DNA of 64,000 bases, from assembly GCA_050950505.1 (NCBI GenBank), contig JBMNHS010000001.1, positions 320,001 to 384,000 on the forward strand. Reading direction: 5' to 3'. The notes under the pieces are model-generated. The model ran no database searches. It was given only the letters and a program-made list of their open reading frames with translations, and was not told the origin of the DNA. The position numbers and the translations under genes were made by a program. This DNA comes from Candidatus Methanomethylophilaceae archaeon (GTDB lineage: Archaea > Thermoplasmatota > Thermoplasmata > Methanomassiliicoccales > Methanomethylophilaceae). Positions 6,373-10,150 of the stretch are shown here, one piece after another; positions within the stretch are counted from its first letter, which is position 1, and the number at the start of each line of letters is the position of its first letter.

Positions 6373-7992
6373 TCACTCATCCATATCCAAGTCGGACATG
6401 TCCATTTCCTGGGTGCTCGAAGATGCAATCACATCATCGATGCGCAGGATCATGACGGCAGTGTCGGTGGCGGCGTTGATTGCCTGTTTTCCAACCCTGT
6501 AGGGTTCCACAACATTGTTTTCGTACATGTCATCGACTATGCCGGTGAAGGGGTTGAGACCTGCGGTGATCTTACCCTCTTTGTGCTGTTTCCTCATTTC
6601 GATAAGGGTGTCGATGGGGTCGAGTCCGGCATTCTCGGCAAGTGTCGCGGGAATCACTTCCATGGCGGAGGCGTATGCTTCGAGAGCAATCTGTGCCCTT
6701 CCGCCGACGGATGATGCGTAATCCCTGAGGCGCATGGCGATTTCCATTTCTTTGGATCCGCCGCCGCATTCGATGAGGCCGTCTTCGATGGCCACTCTTA
6801 CCGCGGACCATGCGTCGACGAGGGATCTTTCGACTTCGTCCGCCACGTGAACGGTTCCGCCTCTCACGAGAACGGATACGGTCTTCGGGTCTTTGACGTC
6901 GGTGATGAAGGTCATTTCTTCGTTCTCGACTTTCTTTAGCTCGACGAGTCCGGCGTTTCCGAGGTCGTCCTTGGAGATGTCCTGGATTTTGTTGACGATA
7001 GATGCACCGGTGGATCTGGACAGTCTGTCCATGTCGCTCTTCTTGACACGTCTGCATGCATAGATGCCTTCCTTGGCAAACATGTGCTGTGCCACGTCGT
7101 CGATTCCCTTCTGGCAGAATACGACGTTTGCACCGACATTCTTGACTGCGGTGACCATTCTCTTGAGCATGTTCTCCTCTTCCGCCACGAACTCGGCAAT
7201 CTGGTTGGGATCCGTTATCTGGATCTTTGCGTCCATTTCGGTCTTCTTGACTTCGAATGCCGCATCGATGAGCGCAATCTTTGCGTTCTTTATGGACTTG
7301 GGCATGCTGGGCTGAACCGGCTCTTTGTCGATTACGAGACCCTTGTGAAGTTCGGTCTCTTCCATTCTCGCACCGGCTTTCTTGACGGTCTGGATGTTGG
7401 TAAGATCGACTTTGTATTTTCCGTTCGCGTCCTTTTCGGCAACAGTCTTGACGGCGTCAACGACGAGTTCCGCAAAGAATTCTTTCGAACCGCTGACCTG
7501 TTTGCTGATCATTGCGACTTCGGCAACTTTTCTGAGAACGTCTTCGTCCTCGATGGTGACTTTCTTGGCGATGTCCAGGAGAACTTCCTGAGCCTTGTCG
7601 TTGGCCATCCTGTACCCGGCGGAGATAATCGTAGGGTGAACGTTGGCTTCGATCAAATCAACGGCTTTCTTCAGAAGTTCGCCGGTGAGTATGACGGAAG
7701 AAGTTGTTCCGTCACCGACTTCGGCGTCCTGCGCTTTTGCGACTTCCACCAGCATTTTTGCGGCGGGATGCTGAACGTCCATTTCCTTCAATATTGTCAC
7801 ACCGTCGTTGGTGATTACGACGTCGCCCAAAGAGTCAACGAGCATTTTGTCCATTCCCCTGGGGCCCAAGCTGCTTCTTACGGCATCGGCGATGGCCCTG
7901 GCGGCGGCAATGTTGTTGAACTGAGCATCTTTTCCTTTGTTTCTCTTTGTTCCTTCTCTGAGAATCAGAACAGGTGTGTTACCCATACCCAT
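6373..7992 (-). CDS. Thermosome subunit (group II chaperonin)
   Basis: [33 protein letters not shown] motifs. Confidence 0.98.
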
Positions 7993-8594: not shown

Positions 8595-9137
8595 GTGATA
8601 GAAATGCCGATGGAAAAGTTGATCGAACAAGAGGAAGGAATGGATTCCCTCATCGAACGTGTCGGTCTGTATATTCCCATTTACAGGGGATACAAAGAAC
8701 AGAATCTTCGCAGGGACGAAGACAGAGCCATAAGGCAGGAACTTGTACTCACGCTCGAAGGCGCCGAGGAAAACATGAAAGTTATTTCGGAAGCTTCCGC
8801 GGAAAGCACCGATATTGCCGCCGATGTCGACAGAATAAGCGAAAAAATCAACGTATTCCTGGAATCCGTGGCTGAAAACGTCAACGGATACAGCGGATGG
8901 CATGCCTCCGCCGATTCCTTGGAAAAGGAAATGGAAGAATTGGTGTCCTTGGATTCCAAATTGATAGAAGATACCGTTCTTCTCAGAGGGACCGTCGCCA
9001 ATCTCGTCCAGAAAATAGATTTGGGGGAATATGCCATAATGACCCCTCTCAAGGAAATTGAAAAGATTCTTGACAGATTGATCGAAGATTATGACGGCAG
9101 AGAAACCGTCATGAAAAAATTCCTCAAAGAAGTCTGA
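8595..9137 (+). CDS. Conserved hypothetical alpha-helical protein
   Basis: 180-aa ORF with RBS-like AGGAG upstream; IPIYRGYKEQNLRRDEDR and GYSGW resemble a widespread uncharacterised family; true start may be ATG 8604 or 8610. Confidence 0.8.
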   Translation: MIEMPMEKLIEQEEGMDSLIERVGLYIPIYRGYKEQNLRRDEDRAIRQELVLTLEGAEENMKVISEASAESTDIAADVDRISEKINVFLESVAENVNGYSGWHASADSLEKEMEELVSLDSKLIEDTVLLRGTVANLVQKIDLGEYAIMTPLKEIEKILDRLIEDYDGRETVMKKFLKEV

Positions 9138-9380
9138 ATCCGAATCTCCCCGTCCTCTGAGGTTTCGGTACCGTTTTGAGTTTTTTGACGGACACGGTTG
9201 TTTCTTTTCTGTTTATTTTTCAGAATCTGCCGCGCATAGCGGCGTTTCTCATTTTATTCTTATTTTTCACTCAAATACACTTTTCAACAAATAAAATACG
9301 ATATTCGTATTAATAATTCGATAATCAACGTAATTCGTTATTCGATTGGTATAAATAGTAGAAAAATAATGTAAGTGTCG

Positions 9381-9555
9381 GTGGCAGGGAGTCGCCGACG
9401 AGCCTACAAGACCCGAAAGAGCGGCAAGTACGTTCGAAGACAAAATTCCGGAAGCAAGGAGCAGGAGACCGGTCTGTTGACACTCTACTCTGATTGACCC
9501 GGAATGAAAAACGTACTTCGAGAACCCGCAACGGATGACCCGATTCCCTGCCCAC
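9381..9555 (+). ncRNA. Candidate structured non-coding RNA (~175 nt, rod-like, family unknown)
   Basis: Nested stems 9381-9394/9541-9555, 9426-9434/9510-9518 and 9445-9451/9499-9505; TATAAATA at 9350-9357; T-run at 9561. Confidence 0.65.
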
Positions 9556-9625
9556 ATCCATTTTTGCGTTTCTTCTTCAGGATAAAAATAATATTCTGTC
9601 ACGCGTTCGCTTATACGGAAGACTC

Positions 9626-10150
9626 ATGAAAACCGTTGAAGATTATATCGTAACCGTGCCCGATTTCCCCCATAAGGGGATAATGTTCAGGGACGTCACA
9701 ACAATTCTGCAGGATGAAAAGGGATTCGCGCTGGCCGTTGACGGCCTGAAGGATATGCTCGACGGTGTTGATTTCGACCTTATCGCCGGATCGGAATCCC
9801 GGGGATTCATTTTCGGGGCTCCGGTCGCTTACGCAATGAATAAAGGATTCCTTATTGTGAGAAAGGCCGGAAAACTTCCGAGGGAAACGGTTTCCGAAAC
9901 TTATGATTTGGAATACGGAACCGCGACTTTGGAAATGCACAAAGACAGCGTAAAACCCGGTCAGAAAGTCGTAATCGTCGACGATCTTATTGCCACCGGC
10001 GGAACCACCGAAGCCATAATAAAAATGATTGAAAAACTGGGCGGCGAAGTCGTAAAGATCTGTTTCGTCATAGAATTGGCGGGATTGAAGGGCCGGGACA
10101 AGCTGAAAGGTTACGACGTGGAGTCTCTGGTCGTTTATCCGGGCAATTGA
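9626..10150 (+). CDS. apt: Adenine phosphoribosyltransferase, bacterial type
   Basis: PDFP..GIMFRD, ESRGFIFG, VRKAGKLP, YDLEYG, VVIVDDLIATGGT motifs. Confidence 0.96.
   Translation: MKTVEDYIVTVPDFPHKGIMFRDVTTILQDEKGFALAVDGLKDMLDGVDFDLIAGSESRGFIFGAPVAYAMNKGFLIVRKAGKLPRETVSETYDLEYGTATLEMHKDSVKPGQKVVIVDDLIATGGTTEAIIKMIEKLGGEVVKICFVIELAGLKGRDKLKGYDVESLVVYPGN

Follow-up and report, generated by a model that had tools for sequence, protein, structure and literature searches.

In a 64,000-nt stretch of DNA from a Candidatus Methanomethylophilaceae archaeon (contig JBMNHS010000001.1, positions 320,001 to 384,000 of the forward strand; the whole of this stretch is hereafter called the window), the intergenic region upstream of the apt gene contains an element at ~9380-9560 on the plus strand, which we consider likely to be an independently transcribed, abundant and structured RNA of ~175 nt, present as one of two genomic copies. 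The element belongs to an undescribed RNA family which, as far as searched, is confined to a single archaeal family. It folds into a rod supported by covariation, comprising the closing stem P1, the short helix P2 (GCGG/CCGC), the helices P3 and P4 and a conserved apical hairpin. A first-pass annotation of the window, made from its letters alone, had proposed a stand-alone, regulated non-coding RNA gene with its own archaeal promoter; the conserved TATA box and repeats upstream of the element, RNA contigs restricted to the element, its covarying fold and the existence of only two copies all bear out this proposal.

By blastn, the element's own 1.33-Mb genome yielded a single copy, and 11 of 15 genomes of the same genus also gave a match, mostly confined to the central 52 nt at ~80% identity; all these same-genus loci have apt downstream of the element and a promoter region in front of it that is strongly conserved. 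A covariance model, R1, was built from nine same-genus sequences and used for all wider searches. It gave full-length matches in 76 of the 151 genomes of the same taxonomic family, covering 9 of 19 genera, and no match in the genera g6 and g8, where distant members may escape a model drawn from a single genus. In a sample of the order, 34 of 151 genomes were positive, namely the window's own genome (G000) and 33 of the 63 genomes of this taxonomic family (f1), with none among the 87 genomes of the order's other six families. The most conserved motif of the family, 16 bases of the form GCAAGACN{5,7}GATGACCGC, showed the same restriction: it was found in 25 of 401 genomes of the class, all of them from f1 and at most once per genome, and in none of the 353 class genomes outside f1. 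R1 further identified a second, diverged copy in the window's own genome (C1:898567-898737), as well as second copies in two other same-genus genomes. This second copy (locus L049, 2001-2171) is of canonical form, has the same palindrome and TATA box upstream, and is followed by a strong hairpin (CCCUGCCC/GGGCAGGG); it lies between a gene for an ABC-type ATPase, named from its sequence alone, and cas3 (HD and DEAD domains), the latter ~370 nt downstream. The full 3' motif is kept in 24 of 47 family genomes and is present in the second copy but absent from the window copy. Searches of the phage and plasmid collections gave no match to either copy. A search of the genome for complementary targets returned no more 10-mers than chance would give. 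At C1:42541, 15 nt of the motif are repeated; this site, considered as a target, was rejected as lying in unrelated sequence.

The nested stems described in the first-pass annotation were reproduced by RNAfold, whereas the folding energy on the plus strand was no better than chance in shuffled controls. Because the energy alone does not separate the fold from chance, the case for structure rests on the relatives. In an alignment made with MAFFT and not fitted to any model, RNAalifold recovered a 47-pair rod with compensatory changes at 13 pairs; across the nine same-genus sequences of such an alignment, 90.8% of the cells were paired against 38-50% with slid partners, and both sides had changed at nine pairs against one to five in the slid controls. 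In the 66 family sequences aligned to the model, 87.9% of cells were paired against 39-46% when slid, and 411 cells had changed on both sides against 38-79 when slid and a mean of 124 in shuffles, none of 500 reaching 411. Thus, the covariation among homologs supports the rod in both alignments. The best-supported helices across the 66 sequences are P3, with one pair being G-C in 27 and A-U in 26 of them, the apical hairpin (U-A in 37, C-G in 21) and P5, a further hairpin of typical members. Family helices 4 and 5 covary strongly; P2 (GCGG/CCGC) is invariant, with family helix 3 being G-C or C-G in 64-66 of the 66, and P1 (family helix 1) is paired in 86.5%. G-U pairs are common, being present in 22, 18, 24 and 13 sequences at four pairs, and their frequency on the plus strand across the family identifies it as the RNA strand (the minus strand of the window copy gives a folding z of -2.03, with 5 of 200 shuffles folding as well). 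A scan of the well-occupied alignment columns found no further supported long-range helix or pseudoknot. Weighing against the structural interpretation are the minimum free energy on the plus strand (-56 kcal/mol, z = -1.33, matched by 18 of 200 shuffles), the P1 pair 7-367, which is non-standard in 27 of the 66 sequences, and the fact that the 66-sequence alignment, having been fitted to the covariance model, leans towards the structure of that model.

Evidence for transcription comes from public RNA runs, nine of which were listed and seven of which contained part of the stretch; four runs from four studies were compared with positions 9000-9900. Each of these four libraries yielded a single contig of 151-161 nt within 9388-9554 (9391-9549 at a depth of 28, 9388-9549 at 5.8, 9393-9547 at 2.5 and 9417-9554 at 372), in keeping with the earlier expectation of a discrete transcript. 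The 3' ends fall at 9547-9554 with none bridging the gap to apt, and neither the upstream open reading frame (ORF) nor apt was covered by any contig in these libraries, which is not proof that the flanks are silent. Since short contigs stop at both predicted ends of the RNA in several studies, a discrete, abundant small RNA is indicated; tempering this conclusion, such contigs reveal neither strand nor abundance nor the precise ends, and the X1 library may be DNA. Contigs from three studies show an A>G difference at 9507, and two of them also lack one nucleotide at 9498; both differences, at or beside the 3' strand of P4, probably reflect variation between strains.

Upstream of the element, the palindrome TACGA-N3-TCGTA forms an operator-like site. 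The pattern has exactly two occurrences in the 1.33-Mb genome, each just upstream of one of the two RNA copies, and recurs within 130 nt upstream of the homologs, exactly in 36 of 66 and with at most one mismatch in 51 of 66. This restriction to the two copies, together with the retention in homologs, points to a putative dedicated DNA-binding regulator. The sequence TATAAATAGTA was found in all 11 same-genus loci with a full flank, and a TATA-like box is present in 47 of the 66 homologs, in 43 of which it starts 28-31 nt before position 1 of the model. This spacing places the putative transcription start at ~9378-9381, i.e. at the first bases of P1.

Typical members of the family are more elaborate than the window copy: they possess a junction bearing the additional hairpin P5, a GA motif whose 13-nt bulge is conserved, and, at the 5' end, GGAGG with an open frame. 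In the GA motif, the CGA directly after GCGG is invariant, and P3 begins with the three bases that follow, which covary with UUC; opposite CGA is GAUGA, which is followed by CCGC and preceded by the nearly invariant 13-nt bulge GCAAGACUCGACN. Between CGA and GAU, tandem sheared G-A pairs could form of the sort seen in the kink-turn (K-turn) and box C/D motifs, the K-turn consisting of a helix, a 3-nt bulge, tandem sheared G-A and A-G pairs and a second helix. Typical members likewise show GAUGA facing CGA beside the Watson-Crick helix GCGG/CCGC, with CGA and GAUGA nearly invariant and the adjoining helix covarying. On this analogy, binding of L7Ae at the GA motif is plausible; a point against it is the sequence-conserved bulge of 13 nt, which is unlike the 3 nt of the K-turn. 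Several other assignments of these motifs were rejected. A hammerhead reading of CUGAUGA does not fit in motif order and spacing. Box C/D RNAs have terminal C (RUGAUGA) and D (CUGA) boxes, C' and D' boxes and 12-nt guides, whereas here CGA is faced by just one GAUGA, located towards the 3' side; the motifs are neither spaced nor ordered as required, and Rfam gives no match. Box H/ACA RNAs have a hairpin with a pseudouridylation pocket and an ACA box at the 3' end, 14-16 nt from the pocket; most members do have RACAA after CCGC, but P5 and P1 then follow, the 3' strand from P3 to the ACA is ~24 nt, the window copy reads AACGG instead and no H/ACA family of Rfam matches. In the window copy, the CGA partner is missing and the GA motif is absent in its standard form.

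The second characteristic of typical members is the open frame along the 5' strand of the rod. Their 5'-terminal GGAGG is paired to the 3' tail, and in 63 of 66 sequences an AUH codon (AUC, AUU or AUA) is situated exactly nine codons before codons for C/S/R-G-E, the anchor codons UGC GGC GAG doubling as the 5' strand of P2. The frame so anchored is free of stops in 63 of 63 cases, while the other two frames have stops in 33 and 49 of the 63; among 64 sequences with the anchor it ends inside the RNA, shortly past the apical hairpin, in 60 and runs off the match in four, giving lengths of ~33-45 codons. Between GCGGCGA and the apical hairpin, 49 sequences have 39, 42, 45, 48 or 51 nt, and the six apt-linked same-genus copies have 50 or 53 nt; in the other 11 of the 66 the anchors were not found. 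The control distance down the 3' strand takes 13 values between 30 and 44 nt, distributed 18/20/20 over the classes modulo 3. As the 5' spacing steps by three and the 3' control is evenly spread, the 5' strand is under reading-frame constraint. Further, AUH lies 9 nt after GGAGG, both being conserved in 63 of the 66 sequences, and this matches the usual Shine-Dalgarno spacing of the genome (peak at 8-10 nt), in which GGAG precedes 14.7% of crude starts against a background of 4.2% and the 16S rRNA ends in CCUCCU.

Set against translation into a functional peptide are several features of the frame itself: no AUG, GUG or UUG start is conserved; the codon two before AUH varies between GUG, GUA, GCG, GCA and AAA; in a selection test on 101 close pairs among 45 sequences, the synonymous fraction was 0.24 in frame as against 0.34 and 0.27 in the other frames, i.e. 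there is no purifying selection, with differences by codon position at 460/448/421; and different clades cross the apical hairpin in three different frames. Compensatory changes in this hairpin turn Ser-Ile-Asp into Pro-Ile-Gly. The family peptides gave nothing meaningful in Pfam or NCBIfam and no match to a PDB profile, and a word-based search of protein databases with a 44-residue family member returned no candidates. A profile search of 1.84 billion proteins gave 57 matches at E<=0.001, of which five are small and full-length, with N-termini that read through the promoter region, and the other 52 are multi-stretch matches to long proteins. Thus, it appears from these sequence patterns that the family frame is probably translated but that its peptide matters little. 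Where the codon is AUU and not AUC (loci L035, L049 and L075), a small hairpin can form at the 5' end from GGAGGU and AUUUCC, so that the ribosome-binding site and the putative start codon would both be masked. Separately, the 3' ends of most members (e.g. L043, L029 and L042) show a short hairpin, ACCCY-loop-RGGG, followed by a U-rich tract. It covaries somewhat (CCCG/CGGG, UCCC/GGGA) and is lacking in the window copy; as it reuses the 3' strand of P1, the two are mutually exclusive.

The window copy and its ortholog in genome G015 represent a derived form. Both read GGUGG in place of GGAGG and have lost AUH and the conserved 13-codon block; P5 is deleted and the standard arrangement of the GA motif is lost; GCGG now pairs with the CCGC before GGAUGACC, and P1 is lengthened to 14 bp. 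In their 5' halves the two copies read different frames, and their P3 helices differ by two double compensatory changes (U-A to G-C and C-G to U-A). In view of this compensation, the conserved apical 52 nt, the intact promoter and palindrome and the discrete transcript, the window copy appears to be maintained as a structured RNA. Most likely, it acts purely as RNA, without translation.

Two alternatives concern the status of the window copy as such. As a small protein gene, it would encode a basic peptide of 38-40 residues from GUG 9375 or 9381: a frame of 40 codons is indeed open, its C-terminal 15 residues are common to the same-genus relatives with many changes at third positions, the family as a whole is under frame constraint, and GUG 9381 would fall at the inferred 5' end, as in a leaderless mRNA. 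However, the N-terminal half of the G015 ortholog is in a different frame, with the same GUG meeting a stop after 15 codons; the loss of GGAGG and of the AUH codon leaves the copy with GGUGG alone, and the start would be buried in the 14-bp stem. The family peptides lack a protein-family match, in searches made with family members, and the profile recovered as small proteins only the five predictions reading through promoter regions. The third-position changes had at first suggested a protein of 36-40 residues conserved within the genus, which was rejected because close orthologs differ in starts and frames. We therefore hold a protein gene at this site to be unlikely. The same grade applies to the proposal that the window copy is a decaying duplicate of the canonical gene, transcribed but functionless, for which the losses of GGAGG, AUH, P5 and the full 3' motif and the presence of a canonical second copy in the same genome can be cited; this is countered by a promoter that is intact together with its palindrome and TATA box, a transcript seen as discrete in each of four libraries, a P1 that is lengthened instead of eroded, the two double compensatory changes in P3 between G000 and G015 and an apical region of 52 nt that is ~80% identical across the genus.

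The remaining alternatives concern the nature of the family. The first-pass annotation had likened the element to bacterial 6S RNA, and an archaeal counterpart would be a rod whose central bubble mimics open promoter DNA and sequesters RNA polymerase. Bacterial 6S RNAs (RF00013 and related families) are likewise discrete transcripts of ~180 nt, with a large internal loop and with their two ends joined in a closing stem, and the window copy resembles them as a ~175-nt rod with a long closing stem, a large internal loop of 26 nt/10 nt between P1 and P2, and a contig depth of up to 372 in one RNA library. Yet the host is archaeal, and no 6S family matched the window copy at E<=10 or 12 homologs at E<=1. 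The loop of typical members looks less like the two-sided bubble of a plain rod than like a junction with P5 and a frame-constrained 5' strand, beside a GA motif with a 13-nt bulge and a GGAGG with its frame; conservation is highest in the apical hairpin and the 3' GA motif and not in the loop. Moreover, no link to the polymerase emerged, and as promoter opening in archaea depends on TBP and TFB, a mimic of the sigma-70 type would lack an obvious target. The 6S analogy, which failed at the match to a model, is not supported beyond a likeness in outline, and we regard an archaeal 6S RNA as highly improbable. A second suggestion of that annotation, that the element is a structured 5' leader, attenuator or riboswitch of the apt gene 70 nt downstream, is favored by the finding of apt directly downstream on the same strand in 11 of the 21 loci examined, from two genera (by Pfam check), and by the hairpin and U-rich tract after the RNA in many members. 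Because a convergent P-type ATPase gene takes the downstream position in 8 of the 21 loci, 10 of 12 same-genus loci have a conserved TATA-like box (CTTTTTATAC) in the interval from the RNA to apt, and the second copy precedes cas3 at a distance of ~370 nt, the RNA is not an apt leader; the contigs, which stop at 9547-9554 and do not reach apt, agree with this. A leader function is accordingly very unlikely, and the linkage with apt looks like inherited gene order. Finally, for a miniature inverted-repeat transposable element (MITE) or another repeat, inverted repeats would merely resemble RNA stems; here the inner stems are perfect inverted repeats without G-U pairs and the minus strand folds slightly better. 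The genome has just two diverged copies (one by blastn, two by the model), contrary to the many dispersed copies expected of such an element, the position is syntenic across genera, the phage and plasmid collections hold no match and G-U pairs are frequent on the plus strand across the family. The chance of a mobile repeat is consequently negligible, and the interpretation as an RNA gene stands.

At the Rfam gathering scores the whole window contains seven tRNAs only, and cmscan of 9150-9700 at E<=10 gave four weak matches, none to 6S and none of relevance on the element; at loose thresholds nothing was found on the second copy, and nothing at E<=1 on 12 homologs. Thus, the element matches no family of Rfam. 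The RNase P, signal recognition particle (SRP) and 5S RNAs were dismissed as candidates, each being found elsewhere in the genome above the cut-off and none in the window. No description of this RNA was found in the literature on Methanomassiliicoccales non-coding RNA or Methanomethylophilus small RNA; the passages of PMC4153887 that were consulted, which list Rfam-based non-coding RNAs, contain no description of it. A partial parallel is offered by type I toxin mRNAs of the hok type, which are inhibited by fold-back: there too the ribosome-binding site is part of a 5' end that is paired to the 3' end, and the competing 3' hairpin of most family members recalls this arrangement. Unlike in the hok systems, the family peptides are hydrophilic and basic and not membrane toxins, and no antisense RNA was seen. 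Among archaea, the small-protein-encoding sRNAs (spRNAs) and dual-function small RNAs of, for example, Methanosarcina mazei (bioRxiv 10.1101/2025.10.28.685009; PMC11456600) are likewise short stand-alone transcripts with a small frame, and as with the dual-function RNAs, the transcript of the present family may also act as RNA. The family differs from these spRNAs in that its frame follows one arm of a rod whose pairs covary, lacks a canonical start codon common to the members and shows no selection at the peptide level.

In the explanation which we propose, the family would be a structured small mRNA or dual-function RNA, whose ribosome-binding site is masked by the stem of its 5' and 3' ends and whose frame may be read without the peptide sequence mattering much, while the GA motif would serve as a protein-binding site of the K-turn type, possibly for L7Ae. 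Most members would couple the rod and the GA motif to a small translated frame, with the window copy reduced to RNA, i.e. to a regulated protein- or RNA-binding rod that would use the apical hairpin and the GGAUGACC remnant and be switched by the putative palindrome-binding factor. A more specific version, which is speculative and which we put forward tentatively, envisages a new riboregulator: GGAGG would be masked by the 3' tail, initiation would occur at the near-cognate AUH, and the passage of the ribosome, and not the peptide, would open the rod and expose the invariant 3' motif beside the K-turn-like GA site; the window copy would be a translation-free paralog that stays closed constitutively and acts as a protein-binding decoy, controlled by the same dedicated transcription factor.

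The coordinates of the individual features are collected below. A script check against the sequence placed all seven motifs of the first-pass annotation where it had put them, and likewise the four ATTCG repeats (9303, 9316, 9333 and 9340) and the T-run at 9561-9565. The GC content bore out the GC-richer block in AT-rich DNA (0.52-0.53 at 9400-9549 against 0.24 at 9250-9349).

Table 1. Features of the window copy and its upstream region (positions in the window).
Feature	Position	Strand	Basis or remark
Palindromic operator-like site TACGATATTCGTA (TACGA-N3-TCGTA), including the first ATTCG repeat	9297-9309	+	Genome pattern search
Further ATTCG half-sites (9316, 9333, 9340) between palindrome and TATA box	9316-9344	+	Block conserved in same-genus alignment
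TATA box TATAAATA (9350-9357) plus conserved GTAG	9350-9361	+	Motif check, conservation
Open frame of 40 codons, GUG to UGA; doubtful as a gene in the window copy	9375-9497	+	N-terminal half in another frame in the G015 ortholog; GGAGG and AUH absent
P1, 5' strand GTGGCAGGGAGTCG	9381-9394	+	Motif check, RNAfold
Counterpart of family 5' GGAGGYAAG, reading GGUGGCAGG in the window copy	9381-9394	+	Alignment with P1 5' strand
Large internal loop, 5' strand	9395-9420	+	Alignments; counterpart of the conserved 13-codon block of typical members, unconserved in the window copy
P2, 5' strand GCGG, invariant in the family	9421-9424	+	Partner in the window copy CCGC 9526-9529, pairing read from sequence
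P3, 5' strand AAGTACGTT (element AAGUACGUU), partner 9510-9518	9426-9434	+	Motif check, RNAfold
P4, 5' strand ATTCCGG (AUUCCGG), partner 9499-9505	9445-9451	+	Motif check, RNAfold
Upper stem, GGAG 9458-61/CUCU 9488-91 and GGAG 9464-67/CUCU 9483-86	9458-9491	+	RNAfold, alignments
Apical hairpin GUC-UGUU-GAC, best-conserved part within the genus	9472-9481	+	RNAfold, same-genus alignments
P4, 3' strand CCGGAAT (CCGGAAU)	9499-9505	+	Motif check
P3, 3' strand AACGTACTT (element AACGUACUU)	9510-9518	+	Motif check
CCGC (P2, 3' strand of the window copy), then AAC, then GGAUGACC	9526-9540	+	Alignments
GGAUGACC, remnant of the conserved 3' motif GCAAGACNNNNNNGAUGACCGC of the family	within 9526-9540	+	Alignments
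P1, 3' strand CGATTCCCTGCCCAC (also given as CGAUUCCCUGCCCAC)	9541-9555	+	Motif check, RNAfold
T-run (T's at 9561-9565), likely archaeal terminator	9560-9565	+	Sequence, motif check

Around the element, an AT-rich, TATA-like stretch (ATAAAAATAATATT) lies within 9583-9625, with the start codon of apt ~40 nt further on at 9626; this stretch is probably the promoter of apt itself, and relatives have CTTTTTATAC at that place. Upstream of the RNA is an ORF of 180 residues (8595-9137, plus strand) with no Pfam match, at a position where relatives have a gene for an SPFH/Band 7 protein with a zinc ribbon, which was found upstream in three genera. A gene for the thermosome (Cpn60/TCP-1) is encoded at 6373-7992 on the minus strand; this gene and the RNase P and SRP RNAs of archaeal type at other sites in the genome confirm that the host is an archaeon.

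To our knowledge, few archaea-specific structured RNA families have been described, and we know of hardly any work on small RNAs in this host-associated and wastewater methanogen-like lineage. The RNA is directly amenable to testing, given its clear promoter, an operator site restricted to its own genes, the support from transcripts and the covarying fold. The two copies in one genome, with and without translation signals, offer a natural comparison of the function of the RNA with that of the open frame. If the frame is indeed read from AUH, the family would provide a handle on near-cognate initiation in archaea.

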